Positions 6,995-42,900 of a stretch of DNA of 64,000 nucleotides are shown piece after piece; position 1 is the first letter of the stretch; the number at the start of each line of letters is the position of its first letter. A model generated the notes under the pieces. That model was not told the origin of the DNA. It saw only the letters and a program-made list of their open reading frames with translations, and ran no database searches. The DNA is from Nitrospirota bacterium (lineage in GTDB: Bacteria; Nitrospirota; UBA9217), in assembly GCA_963818475.1 (NCBI GenBank), contig CAWFSF010000006.1, forward strand, positions 1,536,001 to 1,600,000, read 5' to 3'. The position numbers and the translations under genes were made by a program.

Positions 6995-7021
6995 GGAAGG
7001 GCTTTAATGATAGTATACGGT

Positions 7022-7108
7022 TCGCCTTCCCTACGCCGGAACTACCCGGATCAGGTTCTAAGGGTCGTCCGTAAAAGGACTCTCAGCCCGAAAGGCTCCC
7101 CCAGCTCT
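7022..7108 (-). ncRNA. TPP riboswitch
   Basis: Minus strand ctgggggagcc...ggCTGAGAg...gaccctTAGAACCTGATccgggTAgTtccggCGTAGGGAAg; THI-box motifs directly upstream of thiS. Confidence 0.95.
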
Positions 7109-7126
7109 TGCTATGTAATTGAAGGT

Positions 7127-11399: not shown

Positions 11400-11710
11400 G
11401 TTTCCTCCCATCGGGCGTGCGCGCCTATCCTTCACATGATAGATACTCCAGAGTTTTAAGCATAGCGTAACAAACGTCTGGCGTCAATTGAGGGGGCTCT
11501 TGATACTATTGGCATATAAATGGGAACGGAAGGAGGACCGAATTGCGGACCGTTCTGATAAAAAAGCAAAACAAAGATAATTCCAGAGTTAACCAACCGG
11601 CTATGCACAAGCATTGCGTGCAATAACCTGTGCATTAATTGAATTTAAGTAACATATTGGATAAGATTGAAACAGAGAAATCCCACTCGCATGATTGCCC
11701 CGGAGACAAT

Positions 11711-22550: not shown

Positions 22551-25500
22551 TTATTCGACCTTGTCAGATGGTGCACCCTTGTTGCCGTTGTCGTCCACTC
22601 CCGGCGCCGCTTCTTTGGCCTCATCCGGTTTGGCGGCCTGCGGCGGCTCTGCGGCTGGCTCCGTTTCCTGGGCCTCAGCCGGCTTCGCATCCTGCTTCGC
22701 TTCTCCGGCCTGCGCCGCCGCCCCTTCGGGCGCCTGCGGCGCGGGCGGCTCCGGACGTTCAATGGCGAACATGTAACTATCCAGCGAAGCGATGACGGGG
22801 CTCTCCTCTTCCGGCTTGTCGTAGCGGGCGGGAACGAACTTGGCCAGTTTCTGCAGACTCTTGTCGATCCACTCGTTGTAAACACCGAGGGAGATCAGCT
22901 CGAGATTGCTCTTATGCATTGCAATGGCCTTCTCTTCGAAGGGATAGGCCTGCTCCTCGATGGCCAGTTCGTACTCTTCCCGTTCCAATGCGCTCAGTCC
23001 TGCGGGACGTTCGGACTCCTTCAGGTCCTTGCTGAAGTGGGCATAGATCTCGGCCAGATAGAAGGTCGCCGCGGCGGTGACCTCACCGACTTCATAATCG
23101 AGAAGTTTGTTGAACTGCTGGGTCGCCACCTTCATCAGCTCCTTCTTCTTGCGCAGGTTGGCCTCGAAGGGTTCGACCAGTTTGACCCCGGCGAACTGGT
23201 CGAAGGTTTGCTCGGCCAGAACCAACGCGGCTTTGCCGGCAAGATAGCGGGTCCGCGGCGTACGCTCGCCGCCGGCGCCCGCATCAATGGCGACGATCTG
23301 CCTGAGCTCGGCGAGATAGTTGTCCCGATCGTTCTTCTTCTTCAGAGATCCGCGATTTTGTTGCGCGTTTCCAGGTTGGGTTCCACCGGATGCGGGAAAT
23401 AATCCACATAGCGCCGGTACACCTCGAGCGCGCGGGCCTGGTTGCCCGACCTTTTCATGCAATTCCGCCGCGATCAGCAGCGCCTCCCGCCTTACCTCAT
23501 CATCCTGGGATTCTCTTTCTATGCGTTCATATTCATCGGCCGCGAGGGAGAGCTGCCCATCCTCGCGATAGACGTAGGCGATCTTCTTGGTCACCTCGGG
23601 CTGCAGTGCGTGTCCGGGGAACAGGTCCCGGAAGCCCACCAGCACAGCCGCCGCCATCTTCCAGTCCTTGAGCTGGATCAGGGCGGCGGCCGCATCGTAC
23701 TCCGCGGTCACCCTGATCTTGGAGGTCGGGGCCATACGCCCCACCCGCAGGAAATGCTCCGCCGCTGCCCGATAATCCGCCGGCGCATTCGCCTGTTCGC
23801 CCTGCTTGTAAATCGCTGCCGCAAGATTGTCGATCAGGGCATCGCGGCTTTTGTCCCCGGCGGGGAGCAGCGCCAGCACCTTCACGTAAGCGGTTTCGGC
23901 TTCGCTGTAGCGATGCAGCTCGTAGGATGAGTGGCCGACCACCAGCCAGGCTGCGCGCACGACCTCCGCCTCGGCGCCGGGGAATGCCTCGATGAAGCTT
24001 GCGTGCGGCAGCCACCGCCGGTTCATAATCCCGCATGTCGTACAGATCATCCGCGGCCGCCCCCAGAACGATCGCCGCCTTCTCGTGCTCCGGATAGGTG
24101 TCGGCAAACTTCAGCGAGCTGCGTACGACCTCCCGCTTCACCTGATCTTTTGCCGCGGGCGCAGCGCCGGCGAGGTGTTGGCGATAGGCGTAAATTGCCG
24201 CGTAGCCGGCCTGCGAGGACTTTTCGTGGCGCGGATATTCATAGGCGGTCTTCTCGTATTCCACCGCCGCCAGATCAAAGGAGCGGTTTTCCAGCAACAG
24301 ATCCGCCAACATGATAATTGATGGCCGGCGATTCGGGGTCCATCGGGAAGGAGGTGAGGAATTCCTCGATACCAGTGCAGCGCTTCTTCGAAGTTCGTCT
24401 TTTTTTCCTTGATCTGCTTCGGGCTCTGGTAAAGCGCGTGATAATGCTTGGCCAGGTCGGTGAGGTTCGTTTTGAGCCAGGCCAGAACTTCCGGACGGGC
24501 GCCCGGTTCGAAATGCTTCCAGTATTCGGCCTTGAGCCCGTAGTTGTCGGCAAATTGCTTTTTCGCGTCAATGACCAGGCTGGGGAACGCCGCCGGCAAG
24601 ATGGATTTCGATCACCCGCATGTGGAATTGCGGCGATACCTTGTGGAACGGATTGCGGCTGACAAAGGCGTTGTAGGCTGCAGCGGCGTCGCTGTAACGG
24701 CGTTTGTCGAAGTAGAATTCCCCGAGGTTGCTGTAGACGCCGTCCTCGTAACTGCGCTTGCCGTGGCGGGTGAAGTACTCGACCACGGAGTCGGCGCCGC
24801 CGAGGTTGGAAAAGCTCAGGCTGATGACCCGGAAGGTGTCATCGATGCGCTTGCGTTCCGGCTCGTCCGCGGTCTGGGCAAAGTCGTAGCCCACCGACAC
24901 CTTGTGGTCCAGCAGCGCAATGAACCGGTGCAGGGCCTCGTCATAGAGTTCCTGCTTGTAAAAGGTCCAGCCCAGCTTGTACAGGGCGAGCTCGTAGAAT
25001 AGGATGAAGAGACACCCATGGTCACGATGCTGCCGTAGGCCTCCTCGGCATCCAGGTAACGCCTGCGGGTGAAGAAGTATTCGGCGCGCCGGAACTGCAC
25101 TTCATCGATATATCGGGACCGCGGGATAGTCGCGCACCAGCCGGTCCATGACCGCCATGGCCTCCTCGATCTGCCCCAGTTCCTCATAGGCGCGGGACAT
25201 CTGATACAGCACCTGGTCGTTGCGCTCGTACAGGGGATAATCGTTCAGCAGTTTCTTGTAGAGCGCGATGGCCTCACGGGCGCCTGCCCGTTCCAGGTCC
25301 TCGGCGCCGCGACAAGGCTCCGTCCGCAGCCGCCGCCGTGCCGGCCACCGGCGCGCTCTGGGTCGCCCTTTTCTCAAAATCCGCCTGCGATTCGCCTGGC
25401 ACCGGGTTCCTGCGCCGGTGCAGGACCAGAGGAGCCGCGCGGGCGCGACCTCCGGACGCGCCGCGCGTTCCGGAGGAGGCAACGCAGCGGCGGAGACCCG

Positions 25501-25788
25501 GCGGTCCGCTGCGGCATCGCCGGAAAGAAGGCCATATTCCCTTTCGATCTTCAGGTCTGCCAGGCGACGAATCGCCTCCGGCGACAGGGCCGAGTCCGGC
25601 GTTTCTTCCAGAAAGCGCCGGTAACCCTCCATGGCTTTCTCGAGCCCGCCTTCGATCTTCTCTTCCTTGATTTCGATCTGCATGTTACGCAACTTGGCAA
25701 TCGTATCCTTGCCGCCGCCCGACTGACAGGCGGTCAGGAGCAGCGGCAGCGCGAGCACGCTCCATCGAAGACAATTCGTTGTCCTCAT
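22551..25788 (-). CDS. Large TPR lipoprotein, ~1050 aa (GltD/AgmU-like; frameshifted)
   Basis: Lipobox LTAC; TPR array (DQVLYQMSRAYE, EVQFRRAEYFF, AEYDAAAALI); C-terminal LEREEYELAIEEQAYPFEEKAI...PARY. Confidence 0.75.
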
Positions 25789-27685
25789 TGCTCGGCCCTC
25801 TTCCGGCGCTGGGCCTTGCTGGCACGGTCGTAGCTGTCCGCCATGGCGAAGCGCGCCTTGATCTGGAATTCGTCAAGCCGGTCGCGGCGCTTGGTGAGTT
25901 CATTCACGGCCATGGTCTCGAGCATCTGCCCCTGACGTGCCATCAGTTCCCCCACTTTTTCCCGGGCGGCCGCGATCCGGGTCCGCTGGCGGCGGATCAC
26001 CTCGTCGTACCCTTCGTAGCTTTGCGTGGCGGCCTGGCGGGTACGCACAAAGGCAGTGTACTGCCTGTTCAGCAGGTCGATCACCTGGTTCAGATCGCGA
26101 AGGTTCTTGTGCGCCTCGGTAAGGCGCTGGTCATATTCCGTATGAGATGTTCCAGTCCAGCACCCCCCGCAGCCGCCTGATCCGGTCCTCGACGTCGTCG
26201 GGCGCGGCCGCGCCGTCCGGCGCGTCAGCGTCTGCTCCAGATGCGCCAATCTGTTCGCTGATGATCCGTTCCTCCGCGGTCGCCAGATAATCGGGGCGCG
26301 GCGCCACCAGCATGGCCTGCAGCCGTTGTTCGATCCGGTCCCGCTGCTCCAGGCGCAGCCGCATCTGCGAGTCGAGCCGTCTGAATTCCCGGTCGATCGC
26401 GGGAAGCAGCGGCTGGTAATACGCCCGGCGCTGCTCGATGATATCCTCGAAGGCGTCCAGGTCCCCTGACCAGACCTCCAGCTTCTTGCGCAGCTGCTCC
26501 AGGTCGAGATAGTTTTTCAGCGATTCCTGAAAATCATGGGAGGCCATCAAATCGAGCAGGTAGAATGTCTCGGGCGTTTCCGGCAGCTCGCGCAGCTTGA
26601 CGACCCAGTCGGCATCCTGTTTCAGCTCTTCCCGCACCAGGGCCTTGAGAAATTTGCCTTCGCGGATACTGCGTGATCGATGCGCCGAGCTTGTCGATCT
26701 TCCTTGCCGAACGCCTCCAGCGCCCTGCCATACATCAGTGCCGCCTTGCCGTACACGTTCGAGCTTCCCGTAGGCATAGGGGACGGCGAGCATGGCTTCC
26801 TGCACCGACGGAGTCCGTGACCTCGCGTTCGGCCAGGATGCTCCAGGGCACCAGGGCCTGTTCGAACCGTCCCTGAGAGGCGTCTGCCCAGCCCGAACCG
26901 AGCAGCGCCCGGTTGGAGAACGGCCCGCTCAGACGCACCCGGTCGAGCACCTGCTTGGCGCCCTCGAAATTCTTTTCACTCATCAGCTTGTCGCCGAGGA
27001 CAAGGTTCGACTTGTCCTTGATCGCCAGCGTGGCCGGATTGTCGCTCTCGATCTGGCCGGTACGGTCGAGATACTGGCGCCCTTCCTGCTCCTTCCCGCT
27101 CCTTGAGCAGCGCGATCCCGAGGTTGTACGTGGCAAAACCTTCCAGGCTCTTCGCACCTTGGAGGTCTTTCAGGATGCGGGCGGCATCATCGAAGCGGCC
27201 GTTGGCCATAAGGATTTGCGCGCGCAGGAATTCCAGATCATCGCGAATTTCCTGCGGGAACGGCGCCCCGGATGCGTTCCACGGCCTGCAGGGCATTCTC
27301 CGGCTGGTCTTTCTGGAAGTAGATCCGGGCCAGGCGGAAAATGGCCTCGTTGCGCACGGTCTCCTCGACATTGCCCTCGATCACCGCCTTGATGGCGCGC
27401 CCGGCGCGCTGGTGCATCCGGTAGAACAGTTCGAAATCACCCACGTCAAACTCGGCCTGGTCGACATGGTAGTAAAGCGAGTCGAGCGCGGGCTCATCGA
27501 GCCCGCGGTACTGCCCCAGTTCGGTGTCGAGCCGGGCAGATGGCCTCGAACCAGTCCCCCTGATAGGCGTAATACAGGGCCTCTCCGAAATAGAGGTCCT
27601 TCAGGTCTTTTGGCGTGGCTGTGCCGGCCGCCAGTGCAGGCGCTGCGAACAACAGGGAAGCCAGCAAGACAAGCAATCTGGACAT
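25785..27685 (-). CDS. Exported TPR/coiled-coil protein (frameshifted)
   Basis: Signal peptide, KDLYFGEALYYAYQG, NEAIFRLARIY, NRALLGSGWA, EAMLAVPYAY, C-terminal ARFAMADSYDRA. Confidence 0.7.
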
Positions 27686-27688
27686 ACG

Positions 27689-28215
27689 CTACCAATCCTT
27701 AAGGGTGATAGTTTGAGCATCGGAACCGGCCAGGTGAACCTCCACCATCTTGGGTCCCACATCCTTGTTGAACTTGAAAGCTTTCCGTTCCGCGGAGATC
27801 GGATCCGCCCTCGGTTTTGCCGGTCAGGAGTACCTGCAGGTCGTGCTCGCCGGATCTGACATTGCCGGTATAGATGCGCTGCACCCCCCCCTTCTGCAGC
27901 GCTTCGAGCTCCTTGAAGGTGTAGAGGTGATGAGCGACCGGCTTGCCGTCCAGCTGGATCTCCATCGAATCGAGGCGGAAATTTCGCCCCGTTGTCCAGC
28001 GACACGAAGACGGCGACCTGGGTATTGGATGGATACAGCAGCTTCTCTTCGAGCAGGTTCAGCTGCGCCGCGATGCCGAGAACATCGGTCTTGATCTCCT
28101 GGACCTGTTCATCCAGGCCCTTGATCTGTTCCTTGGAGACTTCCTCCGCATAGGCAGGGAAGCTCAGCATCAGCATCGCAATGGAGAGAATGAACCCTTT
28201 TAACATGTTGAACAT
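27689..28215 (-). CDS. Conserved exported protein of Glt-like loci (frameshifted)
   Basis: Signal peptide, LDEQVQEIKTDVL...LEEKLLYPSNTQVAVFVS, HHLYTFKELEALQKGGVQRIYTGNV; no HTH. Confidence 0.7.
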
Positions 28216-28244
28216 GGCTGCCTCCTGTAAATCAAAAGAGCATC

Positions 28245-28391
28245 TGGACGCGATTTACGCGGATAAACGCGGATTTAAAAGCCTGATTAAAAGCATGATG
28301 AATCCTTTTCTTGAATTAAATCATAAACAGAATCTTGATTTATCTGCGAACCTGCGTCGCCTGAGCGCCTCTGTGGTCATCTGCGTCCAAA
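28245..28391. repeat. Intergenic palindromic element, copy 1
   Basis: tggacgcgatttacgcggataaacgcggat ... atctgcgaacctgcgtcgcct...tggtcatctgcgtccaaa. Confidence 0.75.
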
Positions 28392-28398
28392 TGTCTAT

Positions 28399-31300
28399 TT
28401 ACATTTTCCCGACGATATTGATGAACAGCCCCTGGTGCCTGTAATCCAGGTCGGTCAGATCATCCGAGAACTTGCTGAAGTTGTAGCCGACCCCCACCTT
28501 GATGTGATTGCCCAGATGCCGGTAGATCCCCACCAACACCCCGCTGCGGCTGTCCTGGGCGTCGGGCAGGTCGAGCAGGCGGCCCTCGATCAGGGCGTCC
28601 CAGCGGTGGACGAAGTGCCAGTCGGCGCGCACGCACATACAGGTGAGGCCCGGCTGTCGAAGTACTCGGGATTGACCCGGTCCAGGCTCACCTGCCCCAG
28701 CCGATAGGCGTACTTGCCGCCCACGGTCCAGCGTGACGTCAGATCGTACATGACATCCACCGACGCCGATGTGACTGCGCTGGATAACGCCGGCCGCCGT
28801 GCTGGTGCCGCTGATCTGTTCCGCTGCCGGCACATTGTAGAAATAGGTGTACTTGAGCAGGGCGTTGAGCCGGTCATTGTTGACGGGACGGTAGGCATAG
28901 CCCATCACCGCCTCGGTATAGCTGCCGTCGTAGAACTGGCCCTGCGAACTGTCGCTCTGGGCATAGTTGAATTTGCCGATGAGCCGCCAGTCCGGGGACA
29001 ACTGGTATTTGAGGCTGTTTTTCAGCAGCCAGGTGGTGCGTTTGATGGTGCTGGTATCCGGCTGCTCCGAATCATCCACCCGGTATTCCAGGGCGCTGGC
29101 TATCTTCAGCTTCTCGAATCCATAACCGGCGCTCACTCCGGCCGCCGTTCTCTTGATCTCGGCCCCTGTCAGATTGTCCTGCAGGGTGCCGAAATCGAGA
29201 TTCGCTCCGAAATTGAGGCGATCGGCGGGCGCGAGTTCCACACCGGTGGAATGCATCAGACCGGTGGGGACATCGCCATGGGTATAGCGCTCTTCCAGAT
29301 AGACACTGGCGCTGTCCGAGTAGCGGGTGCGAAACCCTGATGCCATGTTCCCCTTTCTGGCTCGCAGGCCGTTGTCCGAACGCTCGTTCTCCAGGGCATA
29401 ATTGAGGTAGAGCGTGGTCCGGTCGGAATAGAGATACTCGGTGCCGAGCCGGCCGGCCGCGCCGAGGTCCCCCTCGGAGACCTCGCCGTTCAGCTTAAAG
29501 CGGTCGGTCACCCGATAACCGCCGCCGACGCCGATCCGGCCATTGTCCTCGCGATTGCCGCTGGTCTGAACCGACTCCTGCGCGAAACCGTAGCCGCTCC
29601 ATCGCGCCTTGGAATCATACAGCGCCTTGGCCACCACATCGGTGCGGTCGCCCTCTTCCTGGGTCAGGGGAACCACCGGCGAATTGTCCTCGCGGCTGTC
29701 CCGGCGCACGCCCGAACTCAGCGTCCAGTGGTCAGTCACCTGGTAATCGAGATTCAGTTCAGCGGCCTCTGTTTCAAGCCCCTGGTCCACGGTCCGCTTG
29801 TCGGCCTTGAGATGCAGCCCCAGACGGTCGGTGATGGGCAGTTCCGCCGTGCCGCCGAGTTGAGAGGTATCCCGATCGGTGACCAGACCCGGCGCTGAAT
29901 AACCCGCCTCGAGTTCCTGGTTGTATAAGGTGATCCGCCCCTTCCAGTTTTCGAAGAAGTCCTGGAAGCCGACGCTGACATCGACACGGTGGGCCATGGC
30001 GTCGACATCGGATTGACTCAGAGGGCCGGTGGTGCTGAAATTGAAACCGCCATCCAGCGAATTCGTGGTGGCAGAGACCCGGCCCCTTGCTGCGGCCGGC
30101 TTCGAGCTTGACCCAGGTACTGGATGACTTGCGGATGGTCACATCCGCGCCATCCAGGCTGTTGTCATTTCCCTCTTCCTCGTCCCGGCTGGTGGTCACG
30201 CCGACCTTGACATGGTCGCCGAGCCAGTAATGGGCCCGGCCGCCAAACGCCATCGCATCCAGGTCCTCGACCCCGGGCGTGATATTCGTAACGGACCACC
30301 AGAAAGACGGGGTTGCCGCCGGTCGAGTCGCTGTGCACCAGCAGAGAGTCGTCCGCCGTCGAGGCCAGGGGCTGGGTCAGCAGCAGGCGGCCCTGCAGGT
30401 AGTCGATGTCGTAATCGAGAACCGGCGTCAGGTTCTTGACGCGCCAGCACCATGCCTGAATCCTTGTCGCGGACCTCGATGCGCACCCGTTCGGACCCTT
30501 GAAGGAGGTCCTGCCGACGCAGGAAGTAAAGGGAGCCGCCGGTCCCCCGGAACTCATCGCGGCCCGCCACCGTCCCCGGTTCGGCGGCAAAACCGTCGAC
30601 CATGAAGCGCTGCTCGCCGAAACTGGTGACGCCAGGGGTCTGATAATGGAGGTTCCCGCCGTAAAGCCCACGGTCCACGTGCGCCAGGTCGTTATCGGTA
30701 TAGCCGACCTTGAAATTGCCCCAGAGGCCGTAGTTCTCATCTTTTTTCAGCTTGACGTAGAACTTGCCGCATGGTCGGGGCATCTTCCACGACGGTGCTG
30801 TCATCGCCGAAGGTCGGGAAATGATAATCCGGGTCGATACGCCGGAACAGCGCCTCAGGCGACTTGTCCAGGAAGTTGCTGAAGATCTCGTCCAGCGGCC
30901 CTTCGCGCGTATCGGCGCTGGCCGTCAGCCCCCAGCCGTTGCCGAACTGGCCTTTCGTATAGAAGGCAAGCCGTCCCTGGAGGTCAAAGTCGTCGCTGTA
31001 TTGCGGCTTGTCCGGGGCGAGCAGCTTGGCCGGACCGTTGGTCTTGTTGGCCGACAGGGTCAGGTCGGCGATGCCCACCGTGAACCAGTCGTTCTTCTCC
31101 AGCGCCAGATCGCGCAGAAAGAGTTCGCCGTTGCCGGACTTGTCGAGCACGGCCACCTCGACGGTATGCATGCCCGTCGGCAGGATTTCCTCGGCGATGA
31201 AACGGCCCTTGCCGTCCACCGGCACCGGGTATCCGGCCAGCCAGACGCCGTGTCCGGCGGGAATCGCGCTGCCGTGGGCCTGGACGGTCCCGCCGCTGAG

Positions 31301-33529
31301 CGGGATGTTCCTGCTGGCGATGCGGCTTTCGCCGTAGCCGGCCAGCAGTTCCGTCCGCGGGTCGGCCTCGGCAACCGACGCGATCGATCTGGTCGACCAC
31401 CCACAGCGGCTGGGCCGTGGTCTCGTCGAAGTGGCCGTTCGCATCGTAAACGCGGACCAGATATTTGAGCTGCCGCCCCGGCGCGGAGAAGGTCTCGAAA
31501 CCGGGCTGCCATTCCGCCATGCCCTCGTCATTCATGGGGATGACGGCCACGGGCGTGTCGCGGACCGACTGGGCCTCATCGAAAACCCTGACCTCCGCCC
31601 GCTTGATGAAGCTGTGGTAGTTGGCGTAGAGGCGAAAGCGGACCAGGTTCTCGGCAAACTCGGTCTCCGCAAGGTCCTGATAGCGGATGCTGCGCGGCCA
31701 TGCGGTCACGTTCAGCCGTGGCTCCGCCTTCAGGTTGTCGTACTTGAACTCGATCTGGGCATGATCAAGGGCCACGTCGGTGCAGCGCTGCACGTCGGGA
31801 ATGCTCTTGCCCGGATCGTCGATCGGCTTGCCGTCGACCGAGATGCGCATGAGATTGAGGCCGAAGGGATTGGCCGTGCTCACCTCGCGGGTCATGCGGG
31901 TGATGTCCACCCCCTCGTAGTCATCGAGGGCGACGAGTTCATCATAGACGACCTGCACCTCGACCCGCGAGGTATCCGACTCGATGAAGCCGACATTGAC
32001 CACGTCCGCGGTCTGGACATAGCCCCGGCCTTCGAACTCCGCCTGTTCCTCGGTCAGTCCCATCTGCTCGCGCACCGCGGTCATGGTCCGGCGGGCACGC
32101 GCCGTGGACCAGCCGATATCGTCGCCGTAGACGGCAGCGGTGCGCCGGTCGAGCCGCTGGTTGCTGGTATAGCCGACAAAGCGCAGGCGGACGTTGGTCT
32201 TGTCCTTGATCTCGTCCATGAGCTGCCGCAACCGCTCGGTATAGCCGTCGGGCAGGACCGGGTCGCCGTTTTCGAACAGGATCGGATCGATGCGCGCCCG
32301 ACGGCGGGTCATAGACCTTGGTGACCGTTTCGGCGCCGGCATCTTCCGGACACAGCCGCGGCTCGTCAGGCAGGTCCTGGAGCGGATCGTCATGCCAGAA
32401 CTCGACCTCGACGCGCCGGTTCATGGCCCTGCCCTGCGGCGTGTCGTTGGAGGCCACCGGCTGCGACGCTCCCTTGCCGTCGCTTTCGACCGCGACATTG
32501 GACAACCTCAGAGCGTCCTGGACGGCGAGGGCAACGCGCCGGGCCACCGCCTTCGACAGCCCCAGCTGGTCGCCGTAGATGCGCTCGTCGCGCCCTTCCA
32601 GCGGGGTGTTGTCGGTATAGGCGGTGAACTTGACGACGATATTCTCCTTGCCTTTCAGATTGATCAGCGCCTGTCTGATCTGCTGCAGAAATTCTTCCGG
32701 CACGGTCACCATGCTCTCTTCGTAATGCATGGGCGCAATCAGGTTCTTGACGCGGGCACGATGGGAATGGCCTTCCTTGTAACGCAATTTGCAGACCGTC
32801 TCGGTGCGGCAGACCTTGACGCGGTTCACCTGCCGGGGGACGATCACTTCCTTTTCGACCATCTTTTCGCTGATCTCGTCATACCAGACCTCAACCTCCA
32901 CCCGCCGGTTGAGCGCCCGGCCGGCCTCGGTCGCATTGCTGGCGACCGGCTGGCTGTCACCCAGCCCCTCATAGGAGATGGCTTCCGGGGGAAGCCCGAG
33001 GGCGCGCTGGCAATATTCGGCGGTGGTGCCCGCCCGTTCCCGGGACAGGCCGGTATTGTCGCCGTATTTCGCTTGCAGGGGGCCGCTGAGCGGCTGGGAA
33101 TCGGCGTGGCCGACAAAGTGAAGACGCACATTGGCGCGATTGCGCATGCTTTCGAGCACGCCGCGCAGAAGCGCCACATACTCCTCGGGAATGTCCGCCT
33201 CACCCTGTGCGGAAACGGATGGGCGGGACCACATTCGCCAGCTTGATCGTCTTCACTTCCTTTTCGGCGACCGTGCGTTTCTCCGTGCGGTCCCCCTGGT
33301 CCTCCGCAAAAACGGACGGATCAAGGAGCCAGGGAGTGAAGGCCCTGTCCTTCGGCAGGTGCATTTCGGTCGTTTCGCCGCAGGTAGCAGCCTCCCTCGT
33401 TCCCGGGTCCGCATTCACGGTCGTTGCAGATACGGCTTCCGCACAGACGGCGGTCTCCGCTCCGGCTACGGACACAAGGAACATCAATATAAGGGCGATA
33501 CAGCGCTTCATCATTAATCCCATCAACAC
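28399..33529 (-). CDS. Giant outer-membrane protein with three OmpA-like domains and a C-terminal beta-barrel, ~1700 aa (frameshifted)
   Basis: Signal peptide; GHADSQ..LSRERA..NRRVEV, AYTDN..NRRVEV, GYTSNQ..STARA; GRLAFY, DPDYHFPTFGDDS, DYDIDYLQGRL; ends GVGYNFSKFSDDLTDLDY..GLFINIVGKM. Confidence 0.8.
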
Positions 33530-33545
33530 ATCCTAAAAAAACATT

Positions 33546-33697
33546 TGGACGCGGATTTACCGCGGATAAACGCGGATGTTAAAGCTTGAATCAAGTAAGT
33601 TTTTAAATAAAGGCCAAATCATAAAAAAAGTTCTTCGCATCTATCTGCGCAATCTGCGTCGCCTAGAAGCCCCTACTTTTGGTCATCTACGTCCTAA
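33546..33697. repeat. Intergenic palindromic element, copy 2
   Basis: tggacgcggatttaccgcggataaacgcggat ... atctgcgcaatctgcgtcgcct...tggtcatctacgtcctaa. Confidence 0.75.
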
Positions 33698-33718
33698 TAG
33701 CCGTTTCTGACGGCTGGG

Positions 33719-36700
33719 TCACGGCGGCGAGCCCCGGCGCCAGAAGATCTCGGTTTCGATGGTGAGCCGATATCCGCCATCCCACTTGCCGGCGATCTCC
33801 TTCTTCAGCGCCTTGAGACGCTTCTCTACCAGACCTTCGTTCTCGACGTCCGCCAGGTACGACAGCCGCAGCACCGAAGGCGCTTTCCGCAATTCCTTCA
33901 ACAAAAGATCGATCCTCGGCTGCCACTGCATCCGCAGCTCCGTGCTCTTCGGTTCGAACGCCCCATCGGCGATATCCATGGACACCACGTGGTGGATCGT
34001 TGCGCCGAAGTTGAAGCGCAGCATTTTGCCGCGCGTGGCGCGCTGCACCCGCGGGTTTTCGGTGGTCACCCGATAGCCGGTGGGCAGGGTGCGATCGTCC
34101 AGCTTGAGGATGAAGTTGCTGCCGCGATTCTCGTCAGGGACCACCGCGCAGGTGATATGGAAGCGCCCGTGCTCGTCGGTGGTGGCGATCAGACCGCGTG
34201 CCGTCACCACGCGCACCCCGGCAAACCCCGTTCACCCGCATCCTGCTATCCGTTCAGATCGCGATCGTCGAACACCTTGCCGATCACGTCGGTGCAGTCG
34301 AAGGTCGGGTCGGGGATGACGCGCACGGTCGCTGTCGCCACCTCCGAGAACGGTCCGCCGGTGTCTGTATTGATCACCTGCGCCTGGTTGACGTACTCGC
34401 CTTCCGAGACGCCGGCGCCCACTACCAGGAGCAGCCTGATGGTGTGCTGCTGGTTATAGCCGATGGCGAGATTATTCCACACCAATTGACGGCCGTTAAT
34501 GACCGGCTCAAGCGCGGTGCTCGTCGATGCGGCTGGAGCCTTCCACATACTTGAACCCGGCCGGCATCGTATCGACGATCCCCAGAGGGGGCAGCGTGCT
34601 GCGCAGCGTGTTCTTGAAGGTGATCGTGTAGGGAACGAGCTGACCGCGGGTGACATTGATCAGGGGGCTCGTCTTCGTGATCGAGATCTTTTCCTCAACA
34701 TATGGATCGACCGGAATATGATTGTTGAAGATCTGGTTGTCATCGGGTTGCCAGTCGAATCCAACGTGAGGCGCAGGTAGTAGGTGGTGACCGCCCCCGT
34801 CGGCGCAGTCGCGGAGACCTGCGCCTCGCATTGATCCGTGGACGGAATGGCGTCATCGGGACAGACCGGTACTGAATAAGGAACCAGCGTTCGCTGCATC
34901 GAAAATGTTGCTCGGCAGGAATAGATCAGCGACGGCCCCGCCACGTATCCCGCAGGCACTGCCGTAACCGCGATGAGGTAGTCGCGCGCCGTCGGGACAA
35001 TTCTGGCTGACTGAAGTTCAGGTCGAACTTGTAAGTTCCGTTCGCCGGCGTCACCTGGTTCTGCTGAGACGGATCGACGAAGCAGCTCGCGGGCAAAGCG
35101 GTCCCCGTTGACGCCAGCAGCATGGTGAGTGTCACCCCACCCAACGGCTTGCGCGACACCGCATCGTAGACGACGCCGTTCGCCGGGATGACGGTTTGCG
35201 TCGGGTTCTCGGCGGGCAGCACGTTCAGATCATCGTCGCTCTTGATCGGCGTCGGCCAGGGACCGTGACAGCTCGGCCTGGTTCAGCACTACGGTCGCCG
35301 CTTTTGAGATCCGTCCTGAGGACAGCCTCGAAGACGATCGTCAGGGTTTCGTTCGCCTCGATATTAGCCGATGACGTTGAGCGTGGTGCCGTTGACTACA
35401 GCACTGACTCCTGTCGTCCCGGTCGAACTCGTGACAACGACATTCTGAATCGAACCCTGGAACCTCGGCATAGCGTTCAGGCGATCGATCTCATCGACCA
35501 GCGAGATATTTGCTACCCGAATACCAGTCGGGTTTTGTATGACGATGGTGTAGCGCAGCCGGTCACCCGGGTTCGCAATCGGTTTGTCCACGGTCTTCTG
35601 GAGCGTCACGACCGGAATCGGAACGGTCAGCGGCGGCGCAGCGGCCGTGGCCACGTAATCGTTGAGCCCGCCGATGCCGTCCGCGCCGGTGCGTTCATCG
35701 CTGTTCGCGCCATCGAGGCTGGTCCAGCGGACGGTCACGCTGTTGGTCAGCGTCTGACCGGCGCTGACCGTATCGAGCACCTTCACCTCATAGGTGATGG
35801 TGACCGTTGTCCCTTCAACGATGTCGATGTCAGCGGTCGGGGTGACCGGCCAGGCCCAGGTGAGGGTCTGGGCCGTGGTGCTGCCGTCGCCGGTCTGCAT
35901 CGGGTCGGTGATGGTATTGCCGGTGCCGTTGACCGTGGCACGTGCCGACCTGATAGGCCAGGCCCAGGCTCAGCATGTCGACGAGGCCGGCATCAAAGGC
36001 ATCGGAGAAGTTGGCGCCCGAGGCTGCCGTCAGGGTCACGGTGTAGGTCAGAATATCACCCGCTTTGGGTGGCGTCGTTGGACTCACGCTCTTGGTGACG
36101 GTGACGGAAGGCTCCACCACCGTCATGACGGCGGTGGTATTGCTGGCCCCCGACATCCGGGTGGCGGCATTACCGTCGATCTGGTTGTACGTATAGGAAG
36201 CGGTGTTGCTGAAGGACAGACCGGCATCGTTGCCGGCAACGTTGTTCATGCGCACCGTCACACTGACCACGATCTGTTCATTGGCCGGGATCTCGATGCC
36301 GTTGGTCGTGTCTTCGATAATTAGATCGGTACTGGTGTTGGTATTGACCGGCGTCCACGTCTGGGAACCAGAGACCTTGCTGATGCTGACCAGGGTCAGA
36401 TTCGCGCTGACCGCCCCGAGGTTGTCGAGAATGCGCACATCGTGCAGCGCCGCCGCCTGCGGGACAGCAGGCACGGTGATGGTGTAGGTGAACTCCTGGC
36501 CGATTGTTGCGGTCGTGCTCGCCGGATTCTGCTTCAGCAGCCCACCGGGCACAGGCGAGGTCAGGGTCTGCTGCGCCGTATTGGTCGGGCCATAAACCTC
36601 GCGGTCGGCAGCGCTGCCATTGGCCGGTACCGCCTCATCATCGAAGGAGTAATAGAGCGTTGCCTGGGCTGTGTTGGTCAGGGTCAGACCGGGACCGAGG

Positions 36701-39700
36701 TCCGCATCGGCCGTCACCTGATAGACCACGCGCAGAGTGTCGCCCGCCGGGATAGTGTAGGCATTGGCGACGCCGGAATCGAAGTTCCAGGTGGCGACAC
36801 CAGTAGTGGCATTGTAGACGGGGGCCAGTACCGGCAGGCTGGTGTTGGTGTTTACCAGGGTGATGGCGGTGGTGGTCACTCCGCCCTGCCGTAGACCTAC
36901 CGGCAGGGTATCCACCAGCACCGTGTCGTAGGCTGGCGCCGCGCCGCTGTTGAGGATGCTGACCGTATAGGTGATGACCTCGCCCGCGTTGATGACCGTA
37001 TCCCCGCCCGCCGCCGATGCGCTCTTGCTCACCGTCAGTATCGGCTGCAACGTGGTGACGCTTGCGGTACTCGGCCGCGTCACAAGATCCCCGGCGACGG
37101 TGTATCCGAGTGTGGCGTTGTTTGTCAGCGTCTGGCTTGTCGGCGTCTGCGCGAACGTATCGTTGTTCAGCACGCGCACGCGGTAGCGAAGCACCAGGAC
37201 GTCATTGGTCGGATTGCCGTCACTGGGGTTGACCACCGTACCCAGAGTCCAGGTAAGGGTCTGCGTGCCGCTCGGCGCAGGTGGTGTGGGCTGGACCGTG
37301 CCGAAGTAGGTGGCACTGACCATTCCCACATACTGAAGTCCCGTCGGCAACGTGTCGGTGACGCTGACATTCGTGTGGGTGCCTTCCTGCAAGCCCAAAC
37401 GCAACTCGTATTCGATCAGATCACCGATACGGACATTGGCATCGGCAGCAGTATACGTATCGCTCGCCCTCACCTTGACAAAGGCTGTGCTATCTCCGAC
37501 GATCAACGTGGTGCTGTCAGAAGCAACATAGTCGTTCGGCACGACGCCGGTTCCGCCGCGCTCATAGGCGGGGAAGTCGCCATCGAGACTAGTCCAGCGG
37601 GCGGTCGCGGTGTTGGTCAGCGCCTGACCGATCACCACGTCGCTGTTCACCAGCACATCATAGGTGACGGTGACCGTCGTCCCCGCCGTGATATCGAGAG
37701 CGCTCCAAGTGAGTGTCTGGGGGGTGCCGGTCACACTCGGTTCAGCGGGCACACCACTGATCCGCGCGGTCCCGGCAACATACGTCAGCCCCAGGCTCAG
37801 GGTATCGCTGAGCACGAGGTCATAAGCGTTGGAGGCCGGGGCCGGGGCAGCGATCAGGTTCACCGTGTACGTGAGAGTGCTCCCTGCTGTTGGCGGCGTA
37901 GCCGACGAGACGACCGTCTTGTCCACGGTAACTGCCGGTTCAGCGATGGTCAGTGCACCGCTGGTGCCGCTGGTCACTGCGCCGGCCGGAATGCCCGTAT
38001 AGGTATAGGATGCTGTATTGGTGAAGCTGACGCCGGCATTGGCAGTGGTGTTATTGGCCACGCGTGCGGTCAGCGTGATCACCGCCTGCTGGCCGGCAGG
38101 AATTGGGCCGATGGTGAGGCTTACGTTCTGGCCGGCCGTGTTGTCCGTCAGGGTGAACCGGCAGCGGCCACTGTGGCGCTCACATAGGTCAAGGCACTGA
38201 GTGCAGAGTGTCGGTGATGACCACGTTGCTGAGCGCGGCGTTGATCGGCGTGCCCGGCACGGTGATCTGGTAGGTCACCGTCTCGCCGATGGTCGCTTCG
38301 CGACGGCGACGTCAAGATCTTGGTCAGCGGCTGAACGATCACCTGGTTGGTCATCCAGACTTGTGCAGGGCGGAGGAAGCGTAGATGCGGCCATTCGCCG
38401 GCAGCGACTCAGTACTCGATGCAGTGTTGCGCTGTTGCTCCAGGTCTGGTCTGCGGCCGCGATGTCGGTATGGAAACCGATGGTGTAATCGATTGTCACG
38501 CACTGGCCCGGATTGACCGGTGTGCTGAGCACGAAGTTCATGGTGCCGCCGCGGCCGGCAGGCGGCGTATAGGTATAATCGGTCCCGGCAATGAGGGTGG
38601 TCCCGCCCACGGCCACCACCGGCGTGGTGATGCTGGTCTCATTCAGCTGGCTCGCCAGCAGGTCGGTAAGCTGGACATTGTAGGCCGGCGCCAGGCCGTT
38701 GTTGCAGGACGTCAGCTGGAAGTTCATTACATCGGTGGCAATGTTGACCTGGTACGGATCGGCCGAGGTACCGGCACCGGTGCGGCCGGTGCCCAGATCG
38801 ACCTTGGCTGATCGCGCTCATCTGCGGCTGACGCACGTCGACCCGCTCCGTGGTCGTCAATCGGGCGGGATAGACCGCCGGATCGCCGCCCGTATAGGAA
38901 AGCTTCGCCAGGTTGTCGAGCAGAATGGACGTGTCATAGCCCACACCCACCGGCGGCGCGTCAGTCACGACCTTCGCGACATACCGGATCACCAGGGCGT
39001 CGTCAGTCGATATGCCGTCCGGCGTGTTGATGATGTCGCCGAACTCCCAACGCAAGGTGCCGGTGGCGCCGGAGACCGGCTGTACCCCCAGGGTGTAACT
39101 GAAGTTCGGGCCACCGATGACGGAAAAGCTTTGCAGCGCCATGCCCACGGGCAGCGCATCCTCGACCACGACGTTCCGGGTCGTGTATTCCTGCATGTTC
39201 AGCGTCAGATCGTAGGTGACGGTGTCGCCGACGCGCAGAATCGGATGCGGTGCTGGTGGAAGGATCTCGGCATAGGAATCCGCGTAAACCGATTTGACGA
39301 TGGAGGTGTTGTCAACCGTGTAGACGGTGACCGACTGGCCGGGCCGGTGCAATAGTCGTTCGGCAGGGTTATAGTCGGACAGCCCGCGCCGGTGCGCTCG
39401 CGCCCCGGGACCGGATTACTGATCGGATCGATCGGATAGTCCTCATCGAGCGAGGTCCAGTCCACATAGGCGCTGTTGGTGAAGGAACTCACCGAGGAGG
39501 CGTCCACCACGGTCACCTGATAGGTGAGCACCAGCGACTGGCCGGCGGGAATGTCGAGACTGCCGTCGTCGTTGTCGCGGCCCCAGACCAGGGTGGTGCC
39601 GGAGGGCGTGGCGGGAGTTCGCGACAAAGCCGGTGACCGCGACGCTGTTGATCGTGGCCGTGGCGGAACCGGGGACCAGCGCTACGTTCGCCGGCAGGGT

Positions 39701-42174
39701 GTCGGTGATGTTGGCATCAAAGGCCGTGGAAGCGTAGAGGCCGCTGTTATTGGTAATCGTTATCTTATATTCGAGAATGTCGCCCACCGTGGCGGGATCG
39801 GTTGCCGGTTTGCCGGCAGGCGAGACAAAGCTCACCGTCTTGGCGGCGGTCAGGAGCGGTTCGACCACGGTCATGTTGGCGGTGGTGCCCGCGCCGCCGG
39901 CCAATTGCGTGCTATTGACGCCGTTTGCCCGGTTGTAGGTGTACTACGCGCTGTTGTTGAAGAACACGCTGCTCTGGTTGGGGGCGCTGTTCAGCAGCTC
40001 CACGGTGATCGCGATCTTCGCCTGGCCATTGGCAGGGATATCGATGCCGGTGACCGTGTCTTCAAGGATGAGCGAGTTGCCGGTGCCCGTATTGCTGAGC
40101 GCCCAGGCGCCGCCCGTTACCACCCGCGCGCTCACAAAGCGCAGGTTCGCCGGCAGAGTATCCAGGATCCTCACGTCGTACAGGGGCACGGCGGTCGGGG
40201 TCGCGGGCACGGTGATGGTGTACTCGAACCGCTCGCCGATCGTGGCGGTCGTTTTTGCTGGGTTCGCCTTCGCCAGCGGGCCGGGAATCAGGATCGTCAC
40301 GATGGTGGGATCTTCGTCGCCCGCCACATCGGGCGAGGCCACGCCGTTGACGTAGGGATCATCGCTCAGGGCGGTGAAGCCGCCGGCGGCGTTCAGGGTC
40401 GCCTGGTTGGAGACCGTGGCGCCGTTGGCAAGGCCCGATTTCAGGGTGATGTCGAACTCGACCACGAGCTGGCCCCCGACCTTGACATCCAGAGCAGGCG
40501 CGCCAGAGATCTGCAGCAGGCCCGAGGTGGAATTAAAGCTCCAGGTGGCGCTGTATCCGGGGGCCCGTCGCAATGCGTGACGATTGCTGAAACGTGGCCG
40601 GATCGAAGTAGGTCAGGTTCAGCGTGTCGTTGATCGTGACCGTATTGATCGTTCTGATCAACATTGAAGACGCGCAGCGTATAGCGCAGGGTGTCACCCG
40701 GCAGCCGCCGTGGTAGCGGGGTTCGCAAGACTGGTCAGGTTCTGGACCGTCTTCTCGAAGTAGTAGCCGTGCAGTGGCCGCCGTGACGGTCTGGCTGTCC
40801 TGATAGTCAATGAAGTCGCCGGCGTGCCGTCGGTGAGCGTTCTGGTCGAATTCGCGGCGGCCGGCATAGGTACTGTTCGCGCTGAACCACTGGGTGGCGC
40901 CGGCGACATTGGTAAGCGTTGCGCCGTCATTGGTGAAACCCGGGATCGAGCTGCGTCTGGTAGGTGATGATCAGGTGCTGCTCGGGTGCGATCGGGCCCG
41001 CGGCATCGGTCATGGTCAGGCTGAGCTGGCAACCGCTGTAGGAGACCGTGTAGTCGGTGCCCGGAGCCAATGTCTTGACCAGGGTGGTGCCGTCGGCCTG
41101 GACGATCCTGGCGCTGAGCGTGGCAGTGGGGTCGGTGGCGCACATGCCGACCGGGAGCTTGTCGGCGATCGTTGCGTTCCAGGCGTCGCCGCCGCCGCTG
41201 TTCTGGACATCGATGGTGAAGGCCGCTGTGTCGCCCAGGTTCAGGGCCGTCGCCGGGCTCGTCTTGTTGACCACGAGATCGGGCGCCACGATGGTCATCG
41301 GCGCAGAGATGCCCGACTCGCCCGGGAGGGGGTTAAAGAATTCGTTGGAATCCACGATGCCGTCCTCATCGAGATCGATCCACCGTGAAAATTGCCACTT
41401 GGCAGTGTTGGTGAACTGCCTCCCTGGCACGTTCGTCGGCGTGTCATCGAGGACCACCGTCACCTCGACCACGATCTGCTCCCCGGCCGTGAGATTGGGA
41501 AGCGTGAAGTGGAGGTTCTTATCGCCCAGCTACCCAGAGTTACTGATCGGCACCGGTGTGCCGCTGCCTTTGTAGTAGGCGTTCAGGCTTACAAGCGTGA
41601 GATCGACGATACCGTCCGACGCCCGTCGTGGTGAGATCGTCCCAGACCTCGAATGCTGCCCAGGTCGTTCGGTGACGGGTCGCTCGCCAACGGGAAAATG
41701 TCATGACCGGGATCGTGAGCGTGTAGGTGAAGGGCAGACCGATGGTGGCCGTGGATGCAGGGGTCTTCTTATCGATGGTCTCAGCGGGGATCATGATATC
41801 CTGGCATGCGCCGCTGAAAGCCCCCTCTTCGGGGAGTTAACTACCCAGAGCTTGTGATCGATATTGGAACACGCCATATTGCCGGCGAACCAAACGTTGT
41901 CGAAGACAATGAGATATATCGTGGGGTCATTGGTTTGAAAGTTGATGGTTGCGGTCAGCGGATTGGACTGCGGCCAGTTCTGGAACGTGCAAGTCGTGTC
42001 GATCGTGATCTGGACAGGAGAGGTGCCGAGAACATTACCGTCAATCACGCCGAAGTACGGGGCCTCGGAGCAAAATTTCTCCGCCGCCTGCGCGGAGGAG
42101 GCCACACCCAGCACCAGGGCGAAGAGGAGCAGCAGCGGGAAACCGAGCCTGGCGCCGCGTGCTGTCAGGGCCAT
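33719..42174 (-). CDS. Giant DUF11/isopeptide-repeat surface protein, ~2800 aa (many frameshifts, one in-frame TAG)
   Basis: Signal peptide (LLLLFALVLGVASSAQA); many K(T/S)V...G..LTYT...D.LP.GL.YV...TNTA repeats; C-terminal DCTDVIGKVFDDRD..GLIATTDEHGRFHITC and a degenerate OmpA-like tail. Confidence 0.8.
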
Positions 42175-42360: not shown

Positions 42361-42416
42361 AAAAAAAAAGCCGCCAAAAAATAGTCCTGTCGTGACAGGC
42401 GCTATACTTTGGCGGC
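42361..42416 (-). terminator. Riboswitch terminator
   Basis: Minus strand gccgccaaag...tttggcggc followed by U9; the 5' arm overlaps the aptamer 3' end. Confidence 0.8.
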
Positions 42417-42523
42417 TCGACGGGCATGGAAAGCAAAGCTGGACCATCCTGCGTAGTCCTTGCTTTCTGTAGCCTCGGAACTCTGCGTCCCAAGGTTTCC
42501 CCTGGTTTGCTCTGAGCAAAGTT
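42406..42523 (-). ncRNA. GEMM-I (cyclic dinucleotide) riboswitch, A20 variant
   Basis: acuuugcucAGAGCAAACCaggGGAAAccuuGGGACGCAGAGuuccgaggcuac...augcccgucgagccgccaaagu; P1 ACUUUG/CAAAGU, GNRA-capped P2. Confidence 0.85.
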
Positions 42524-42575
42524 GAAAAATTATGAAATTGTCAAAGCAGCAAACGAAATCACTGAAATCTATACA

Positions 42576-42604
42576 ACTTTAGCATTATACTGCTTTGCTG
42601 TCAA
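42576..42604 (-). promoter_or_regulatory. Putative sigma70 promoter of the riboswitch leader
   Basis: TTGACA-17-TAAAGT with TGn extension, about 50 nt upstream of the aptamer. Confidence 0.55.
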
Positions 42605-42900
42605 GAATCAGAAGAAATAAAATTCTAGATAGAACAACCATTAGTATTCACAAGTTAAAGCGGTCACGGTTTTAGTGGGTCTTCATCTTCACGTTGGCCA
42701 TACTACATGGGAAACTTAAAGTGGTATGTGATTTTAAATACAAAAGTATTATGTGATTCTGATTACATTTTATAAGCGAAGATAGCAATAAAGCTGTGAT
42801 TGAAGTCACATCGCAAATTGACTCGGGAGTCGGAACAGGCCTAAAGAAACCACGAATCACGATGCGAAGTATACTGATTTAGTTGCATGCATCAGGCGCA

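Follow-up and report, generated by a model that had tools for sequence, protein, structure and literature searches.

A GEMM-I riboswitch with adenine at the specificity position ahead of a surface-fibre operon in a Nitrospirota genome: a predicted ON switch and candidate cGAMP sensor

Introduction

Which cyclic dinucleotide is recognized by a GEMM-I riboswitch whose specificity position is occupied by an adenine? The question is raised by an RNA element encoded at positions 42361-42523, on the reverse strand, of a 64-kb stretch of contig CAWFSF010000006.1 (positions 1,536,001 to 1,600,000). This whole stretch is referred to below as the window, and unprefixed positions are counted in it. In riboswitches specific for cGAMP (3',3'-cyclic GMP-AMP), known as GEMM-Ib, the guanine G20 is replaced by an adenine (A14 of the Gs1761 aptamer) that pairs with the adenine of the ligand (PMC6140456, PMC6274999). 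A preliminary description of the locus had proposed a cGAMP-selective ON switch related to those of Geobacter and placed ahead of a Glt-like adhesin operon. The fold, the adenine and the switch architecture are upheld below, whereas the kinship, the host and the operon turn out differently, and cGAMP emerges as a ligand that is rather probable but not assured.

A complete GEMM-I aptamer with an adenine at position 20

The window was compared with 4227 Rfam families using cmscan. Positions 42408-42521 of the reverse strand matched RF01051, the c-di-GMP-I or GEMM-I family, with 50.4 bits for a gathering score of 35 (E = 6.9e-07 over the whole window and 1.6e-08 in a local scan). The match runs over the full length of the model (positions 1-87 of 87) and outscores all other models of the clan at this locus, in agreement with the family proposed in the preliminary description. 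Folded alone, down to position 42404, the aptamer adopts as its minimum free energy (MFE) structure the P1-P2-P3 junction expected of the family, with the closing pairs and the GAAA loop of P2 (-40.3 kcal/mol; Table 1). P3, already noticed to carry a longer insert than Vc2, is longer than in the Rfam model and holds the strands CUACAG and CAUG, which resemble a tetraloop receptor by eye.

The specificity base corresponds to position 11 of the model, an unpaired base immediately 5' of the G-C and C-G pairs that close P2. The consensus base is G, and both the Rfam alignment and direct reading of the sequence CAGAGCAAACC, located at 42514-42504 of the reverse strand, give A at 42511. The guanine which in GEMM-I aptamers contacts one guanine of cyclic di-GMP (c-di-GMP) is thus replaced, as previously claimed; this base is what sets the c-di-GMP-selective members apart. 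The three ligand-contacting bases of GEMM-Ib, A/A/C, are all present as A42511 (G20 in Vc2 of Vibrio cholerae, A14 in Gs1761), A42484 (A47/A41) and C42412 (C92/C75). A47/A41 intercalates between both ligand bases (PMC5888326, PMC6274999) and C92/C75 forms a Watson-Crick pair with the ligand guanine (PMC6140456, PMC6274999).

The reliability of the letter at 42511 was assessed from relatives. Reads of the source organism were not found among public runs, the best of which contained 0.10 of the sampled words, and no RNA runs were listed. Contigs of relatives from four soil or wetland runs cover 42481-42518 and show no alternative letter at 42511; the same contigs vary at 42493, where a G-U pair of P2 becomes G-C. 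Two further contigs from these read runs are about 90% alike over 42391-42589. An adenine occupies the equivalent position in 19 of 19 sequences of the sub-lineage compared, from 12 genomes, this set being composed of all matches from five same-genus genomes and of matches picked by length.

The variant base also lies in the 3' arm of a 15-nucleotide (nt) palindrome, UUUGCUC-A-GAGCAAA (42506-42520, reverse strand), which reaches from the last bases of P1 across J1/2 into P2 and is almost invariant across the sub-lineage. In RNA without ligand, a UUUGC/GCAAA hairpin formed by this palindrome might be an alternative to P1.

A terminator that competes with the aptamer

The aptamer is followed by an intrinsic terminator ending in nine U. 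Its inner hairpin (42399-42386) was found by a terminator scan, and the terminator hairpin, worth -28.2 kcal/mol alone, is included in the MFE structure of the full-length leader. This 169-nt leader favours the terminator state, with -68.0 kcal/mol against -46.8 when P1 is enforced; its z-score is -5.05 and none of 200 shuffled sequences was as stable. Because the 5' arm of the terminator (42416-42402) contains both the 3' strand of P1 and C42412, the C75 equivalent, the aptamer and the terminator are mutually exclusive. Ligand binding during transcription should therefore block termination, which is the arrangement of the GEMM-Ib ON switches. Coordinates and folds thus agree with the earlier remark that P1 (ACUUUG/CAAAGU) overlaps the terminator, from which read-through with ligand should follow. 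In the validated cGAMP ON switch upstream of pilM in Geobacter metallireducens, the aptamer and the terminator are likewise exclusive and the terminator takes C75 (PMC9262584). GEMM-Ib riboswitches are reported as gene-activating in G. sulfurreducens (PMC6456294).

The following course of events is proposed. The aptamer (42522-42406) would fold first while transcription proceeds, and a bound ligand would keep P1 and C42412 inside it. Without ligand, 42416-42402 would pair with 42384-42370, and the resulting long hairpin with its nine U would stop transcription before the start codon at 42174. The most likely ligand would be 3',3'-cGAMP, with c-di-GMP probably recognized to some extent as well. 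Read-through would lead into an operon encoding a giant surface fibre of isopeptide/DUF11 type, an outer-membrane anchor with an OmpA domain, and tetratricopeptide repeat (TPR) proteins. Judging from the mutually exclusive folds, regulation in vivo should be in the ON direction.

Transcription may start at a promoter-like site about 50 nt upstream of P1, and the upstream gene has its own terminator (43507-43482). The 1.1-kb intergenic region gave no tRNA and, above noise, no other Rfam match. A long A+T-rich spacer precedes the promoter-like site; metagenome contigs from three runs match a part of it (42697-42800), with 6-11 differing letters per ~100, and this segment has no Rfam or tRNA match.

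Table 1. Coordinates of the riboswitch, of the operon behind it, and of related elements elsewhere in the source genome (positions prefixed C1 to C6 refer to contigs, all others to the window)
Feature	Position	Strand	Basis or remark
Promoter-like site TTGACA-17 nt-TAAAGT, TG before second hexamer	42576-42604	-	Consensus scan, 10/12; consensus match only
P1 5' strand ACUUUG	42517-42522	-	Pairs with 42411-42406 in MFE fold of aptamer alone
J1/2 CUCAGA, last base A42511 at specificity position	42511-42516	-	Rfam alignment; sequence
Closing pairs G42510-C42485 and C42509-G42486, enclosing AAA bulge and P2 hairpin	42485-42510	-	Rfam alignment, MFE
P2 hairpin, GAAA tetraloop 42499-42496	42505-42490	-	Rfam alignment, MFE
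A47 (Vc2)/A41 (Gs1761) equivalent	42484	-	Rfam alignment
P3, lengthened by 30-nt insertion 42462-42433 folding as continued helix	42414-42483	-	Rfam alignment, MFE
J1/3 GC (G42413, C42412), C42412 being the C92 (Vc2)/C75 (Gs1761) equivalent	42412-42413	-	Rfam alignment
P1 3' strand CAAAGU, also within terminator 5' arm	42406-42411	-	Sequence, MFE
Intrinsic terminator	42361-42416	-	5' arm 42416-42402, inner hairpin 42399-42386, 3' arm 42384-42370, U9 42369-42361
Gene 1, giant secreted protein with DUF11 repeats and isopeptide-forming fimbrial domains	33722-42174	-	Pfam DUF11 on pieces; ATG 42174 and signal peptide
Gene 2, OmpA-domain (peptidoglycan-binding) protein with large beta-barrel-like part	28402-33529	-	Frame-broken; G010 orthologue of 1702 amino acids
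Genes 3-4, two TPR proteins, orthologues of 629- and 1130-residue proteins of G010	22605-27613	-	Syntenic; larger one with YbgF/BamD-like TPR repeats
GEMM-I GGC variants (best as RF03167, 59.7-67.4 bits)	C5:394113-394194 (L001); C2:797503-797580 (L002); C2:778144-778224 (L005)		
G-type GEMM-I, sole in genome	C2:187261-187338 (L003)		
Locus-type A variants, three	42408-42521; L004; L007		
Geobacter-type A variant AAUACU...CGGAAAG...GGGUUGCCGAA	C1:325538-325614	+	L008 1501-1577
Ser candidate 1, GAF-GGDEF protein adjoining clpB	C6:2265717-2266847	-	L009 3718-4848
Ser candidate 2, membrane HAMP-type protein, GYANGS...GGDDY	C6:1078200-1079606		HAMP by eye

A sub-lineage conserved across phyla

Related elements were searched over species-representative genomes with a pattern made of the 5' half of the aptamer, including the A variant and GCAGAG. 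At least 120 loci were obtained, and the 120 listed contain 126 pattern matches. The loci listed are labelled Nitrospirota (46), Gemmatimonadota (27), Acidobacteriota (19), unclassified 'bacterium' (6), unspecified Deltaproteobacteria (5), Eisenbacteria (4), Desulfuromonadales or Geobacter kin (3), Clostridia (3) and other single cases (7). At least four of them (L084, L102, L113 and L152) are not aptamer-like. Since the adenine was part of the pattern, its invariance among the matches is no evidence.

The sub-lineage shows the marks of a structured RNA. Among the matches listed, P2 is fully paired (five canonical pairs out of five) in 69 of 89 distinct sequences, for a mean of 6.7 and a maximum of 18 in 500 shuffles. 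For P1, full pairing is seen in 15 of the 30 distinct pairs of strands, for a mean of 5.0 and a maximum of 10 after shuffling. P1 covaries across phyla, as CUUUG/CAAAG, CUCUG/CAGAG, CGCUG/CAGCG and CCAUG/CAUGG. A hairpin that reuses GCCGC and the 3' strand of P1, followed by a run of U, stands after 60 of 109 of these matches. From the pairing and the reuse of the terminator, the ON architecture is therefore conserved and covarying in the sub-lineage.

The operon behind the riboswitch

The predicted targets encode surface proteins (Table 1). The first gene is read in several frames in the assembly, as seen from the frame changes of the tblastn tiling. From 42174 to 22605 the window is syntenic with a genome of another genus of the same family (G010), in which the operon is intact and encodes proteins of 2247, 1702, 629 and 1130 amino acids. 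The 2247-residue orthologue carries TIGR01451 (DUF11-type repeats) and TIGR04226 (isopeptide-forming fimbrial domain). In the window, the tiling shows about 20 frame switches over ~20 kb and four genes. Because the pieces stay open and are well conserved (55-90% identical to the intact orthologues), and because a genome of the same genus (G003) shows similar breaks, the switches are probably insertion and deletion errors of long-read assembly. The G+C content over 22605-42174 is ~56-69% in 400-nt windows, compared with 54-56% per contig genome-wide. The transcript is presumed, solely on the basis of synteny, to continue from genes 1 and 2 over the two TPR genes.

The linkage between the riboswitch and the first gene is conserved, the same DUF11 gene being found downstream of A-type copies in both relatives. 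In G003 (L042 3525-4909), one of three copies lies ~200 nt upstream of the DUF11 gene and the other two precede a gene for a 212-residue lipoprotein. In G010 (L234 18688-19715), two tandem copies are followed by a gene for a 183-residue Pal-like protein and then by the DUF11 gene. The two other locus-type copies of the source genome (L004 and L007) precede a Big_2-like repeat lipoprotein, so recognized by eye, and two further lipoproteins. With such DUF11 and lipoprotein targets, the regulon would consist of extracytoplasmic surface proteins. The Glt-like operon announced in the preliminary description was not recovered: no Glt family is present among the Pfam and NCBIfam matches of the operon proteins, the Glt proteins themselves not having been used as queries.

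Other GEMM-I riboswitches of the host genome

The source genome is a Nitrospirota metagenome-assembled genome of 4.66 Mb in 7 contigs, with an estimated completeness of 91%. The deltaproteobacterial setting assumed earlier is thus replaced by another phylum, and deltaproteobacterial cGAMP biology does not carry over directly. Eight GEMM-I matches were found in this genome, distributed as three GGC variants, one G-type, three of the locus type and one of the Geobacter type. The last fits the nucleotide identities of Gs1761 and, with a terminator of its own, precedes a gene for a 435-residue lipoprotein; the same AAUACU...CGGAAAG type accounts for 6 of the 10 GEMM-I matches compared in Geomonas azotofigens. 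The presence of several GEMM-I types in one genome fits distinct ligands or thresholds.

Two of the GGC variants are upstream of CBS-domain-like proteins and one of an SRPBCC-like protein, these likenesses being assigned by eye. The G-type element precedes a secreted protein of 415 residues with CxxCH haem-binding motifs, similar to a multihaem cytochrome. The window itself also holds a thiamine pyrophosphate riboswitch (RF00059) at 7011-7112 of the reverse strand (66.2 bits for a cut-off of 54.3).

Candidate cGAMP synthases

The search for a Hypr-type GGDEF enzyme, suggested in the preliminary description, returned 27 GGDEF domain rows in the source genome. The specificity position is Asp in 19, Asn in 4, Ser in 2 and cut in 2. 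Two Ser-type proteins thus exist, and neither carries the canonical Hypr motif set, their motifs being GGEEF and GGDDY.

The closest solved structure to candidate 1 is that of the Hypr domain of GacA (6d9m). Its GHLEGS aligns with GHLVGS of GacA, which places the Ser at the position of Asp344 of PleD and Ser348 of GacA. The cross-dimer residue is Tyr, like Tyr304 of GacA (LLNYRV for LFNYRY), in line with the published rule of a non-Arg residue at this position in Hypr GGDEF enzymes (PMC6456294). GacB, a Hypr enzyme of Myxococcus, has the same GAF-GGDEF architecture (bioRxiv 10.1101/600031). Candidate 2 is similar to GSU1937 as described for G. sulfurreducens, where this protein with a GGDDF motif contributes to cGAMP levels (PMC8835794).

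The Ser/GGEEF form of candidate 1 is kept without exception by 20 orthologues (L174-L192, L203), which represent all 19 genomes of the family. Elsewhere, GacA-like Ser/GGDEF proteins with a non-Arg cross-dimer residue are encoded by four of the five other genomes with a locus-type riboswitch: two Nitrospirota genomes (G025, 1 of 14 rows; G028, 2 of 12), the Candidatus Manganitrophaceae genome G034 (2 of 36) and the Acidobacteriota genome G036 (1 of 6, 6 of its 16 matches having been examined). In G034 the locus type represents 8 of the 13 GEMM-I matches, and the single GEMM-I match of G036 is of this type.

Two other GGEEF proteins of the source genome combine an Asn at the specificity position (GHEKGN) with a cross-dimer Tyr in place of Arg (C6:978902-980239, reverse strand; C6:725569-726807, forward strand), and similar Asn variants occur in G034. 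Two Asp-type GGDEF genes lie within the window on the forward strand, at 413-1915 (C6:1536413-1537915, frame-broken) and at 11639-14242 (C6:1547639-1550242).

Which ligand?

The element is interpreted as a cyclic-dinucleotide ON riboswitch of GEMM-I fold in which A stands for G20, and for which cGAMP is, on balance, the probable physiological ligand. It has the features by which cGAMP riboswitches are recognized in practice, the A/A/C pocket and the ON terminator platform, without being of the validated Geobacter type. A42511 makes the binding of cGAMP likely but does not by itself settle selectivity.

A series of observations weighs against this assignment, beginning with the pocket. The Vc2 string cited in the preliminary description, CAGGGCAAACC, differs from CAGAGCAAACC by the sole change of G to A. 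The identities of the crystallised, cGAMP-selective Gs1761 are G8, A9, A11, A12, A14, C15...G40, A41, A42...U73, G74 and C75 (PMC6274999). The locus RNA has C at the equivalents of both A9 and A11, a G-C pair in place of C15-G40, and CUCAGA as J1/2 where the validated Geobacter type has AUAAUA. Within the set A9, A11, A12, C15:G40 and A42:U73, which describes one validated member rather than a curated definition, only the A12 equivalent (A42513) agrees. The kinship with Geobacter GEMM-Ib proposed earlier is thereby contradicted, the true Geobacter type being found elsewhere in the genome. In binding assays, the G20A mutant of Vc2 showed dissociation constants of 53 nM for c-di-GMP and 120 nM for cGAMP, and Cbe 1-2 of Clostridium beijerinckii, with a natural A20, 30 nM and 463 nM respectively (PMC6140456). 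Bispecific binding is termed 'widespread' in the class in the same paper. The cGAMP selectivity of Gm0970 and of the pgcA riboswitch reaches ~1600-fold and ~1200-fold (PMC8835794, PMC6456294), so that natural A20 members span, in the measurements cited, from ~1200-1600-fold cGAMP-selective to c-di-GMP-preferring. Because Vc2 G20A binds both dinucleotides and Cbe 1-2 favours c-di-GMP, A20 alone cannot predict cGAMP selectivity.

The enzymes add further difficulties. Candidate 1, the better of the two, has the motif GGEEF, and its Ser is separated from this motif by two more residues than in 6d9m. The combination of Ser348 with GGEEF is inactive in GacA, and natural Ser/Thr enzymes are described as exclusively GGDE[F/Y], the 'Goldilocks' rule (PMC6456294). 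The conserved Ser/GGEEF family is, as far as sequence can tell, a natural exception to this published exclusivity. A synthase of SMODS type was not found in the source genome, at its completeness of 91%; the DncV-like model is uninformative since it matched nowhere, controls included. The Gemmatimonadales genome G035 has no Ser-type GGDEF among 7 rows (6 Asp, 1 cut). In a control, Ser-type GGDEF proteins were present in two of four Nitrospirota genomes without a GEMM-I match (G020 and G021, as opposed to G027 and G030). Co-occurrence is thus of no use for telling the alternatives apart; the numbers are also small and the genomes kin. A capacity to make cGAMP is plausible and common in Nitrospirota, whereas a specific tie to the locus-type riboswitch would be conjectural.

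It is possible, though less probable than cGAMP sensing, that the physiological ligand is c-di-GMP, or that both dinucleotides act about equally. The same RNA and the same ON mechanism would then be a natural counterpart of Vc2 G20A, and the operon would answer the ordinary c-di-GMP pool. J1/2 and the adjacent G-C pair indeed follow the c-di-GMP-I consensus save for the A, the affinities of Vc2 G20A and Cbe 1-2 point the same way, about 19 canonical Asp-type GGDEF domains are encoded in the source genome, and G035 has a locus-type riboswitch yet only Asp-type GGDEF domains (6 of 6). Adhesin operons are, moreover, classic targets of c-di-GMP. What speaks against this alternative is the invariance of the A in all members compared, a set partly chosen by a pattern containing it, and the frequency of Hypr-signature GGDEF proteins in genomes with the locus-type riboswitch. 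The coexistence of a G-type GEMM-I in the source genome, G035 and G034 argues against simple redundancy.

Two other explanations carry little weight. Pocket-variant classes do exist, as illustrated by the three RF03167 GGC elements of the source genome, and the conserved GCAGAG (consensus GCAAAG) and distinct J1/2 set the lineage apart, so the aptamer might sense another dinucleotide or a related nucleotide, as proposed for other GEMM-I pocket variants. This is very unlikely, as its ligand-contacting A/A/C is the triplet of validated cGAMP riboswitches and the gene context gives no other nucleotide. That the riboswitch is a relic ahead of a decaying operon, regulating nothing any more, could be imagined from the frame switches in the four operon genes. 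This is barely credible, however, with open pieces conserved as in G010 and broken alike in G003, as expected of long-read indel errors, with intact neighbours (an open reading frame of 1098 residues and clpB), and with an aptamer and terminator that are intact and score equally to those of relatives.

With cGAMP as ligand, the preferred interpretation, riboswitch-mediated cGAMP signalling would extend beyond Geobacter and its kin: it would include Nitrospirota and probably also Gemmatimonadota and Acidobacteriota, three phyla that abound in soil, sediment and groundwater and for which cGAMP is undescribed as a messenger. The messenger would also be tied here to a giant surface fibre of the isopeptide type. 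A preference for c-di-GMP would be a caution against annotating cGAMP riboswitches by the A alone. No literature on the riboswitch class in Nitrospirota, Gemmatimonadota or Manganitrophaceae was found among the 10-20 top-ranked of many matches, which is weak evidence of absence from print; two unrelated papers name both cGAMP and Nitrospirota, and a review names Hypr GGDEF enzymes and Nitrospirota apart from each other. The tables of tested A20 members in the founding papers may already hold relatives. A more ambitious proposal, tentative and rather doubtful, is that the CUCAGA-GC...GCAGAG A variant forms a separate multi-phylum lineage of cGAMP-preferring ON switches. Hypr-made cGAMP would then control fibre and adhesin operons beyond Deltaproteobacteria, and the synthase of the family would be a natural Ser/GGEEF enzyme that breaks the 'Goldilocks' rule through its two-residue insertion.

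Comparison with known riboswitches

The Geobacter GEMM-Ib riboswitches (Gs1761 upstream of pgcA, Gm0970, pilM) share with the locus RNA the A at G20/A14, A41 and C75. They are also transcriptional ON switches in which a terminator competes for the 3' strand of P1 and C75, and they also control extracytoplasmic surface proteins; the host of the locus RNA belongs to Nitrospirota instead. Compared with Gs1761 in particular, the equivalents of G8, A12, A14, A41, G74 and C75 are common to both RNAs, while P3 opens with a G-C pair at the locus and with A42-U73 in Gs1761.

With Vc2, the type example of RF01051, the locus RNA shares the three-helix junction, the GNRA tetraloop of P2 docking in P3, the equivalents of A47 and C92, and a J1/2 near the family consensus. 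It differs by the A in place of G20, by GCAGAG, with a G after the intercalating A, where the consensus is GCAAAG, by a P3 longer by 30 nt and by its ON terminator platform. RF03167, the c-di-GMP-I-GGC variant, belongs to the same clan and fold but its pocket bases differ. By sequence logic, the nearest tested analogues would be the mutant Vc2 G20A and Cbe 1-2, a natural riboswitch; both have a c-di-GMP-I-like pocket with A20, and both bind the two ligands (PMC6140456). A natural counterpart of Vc2 G20A, a G-type element and a Geobacter-type element are thus united in a single genome, and offer a set for probing selectivity beyond position 20.

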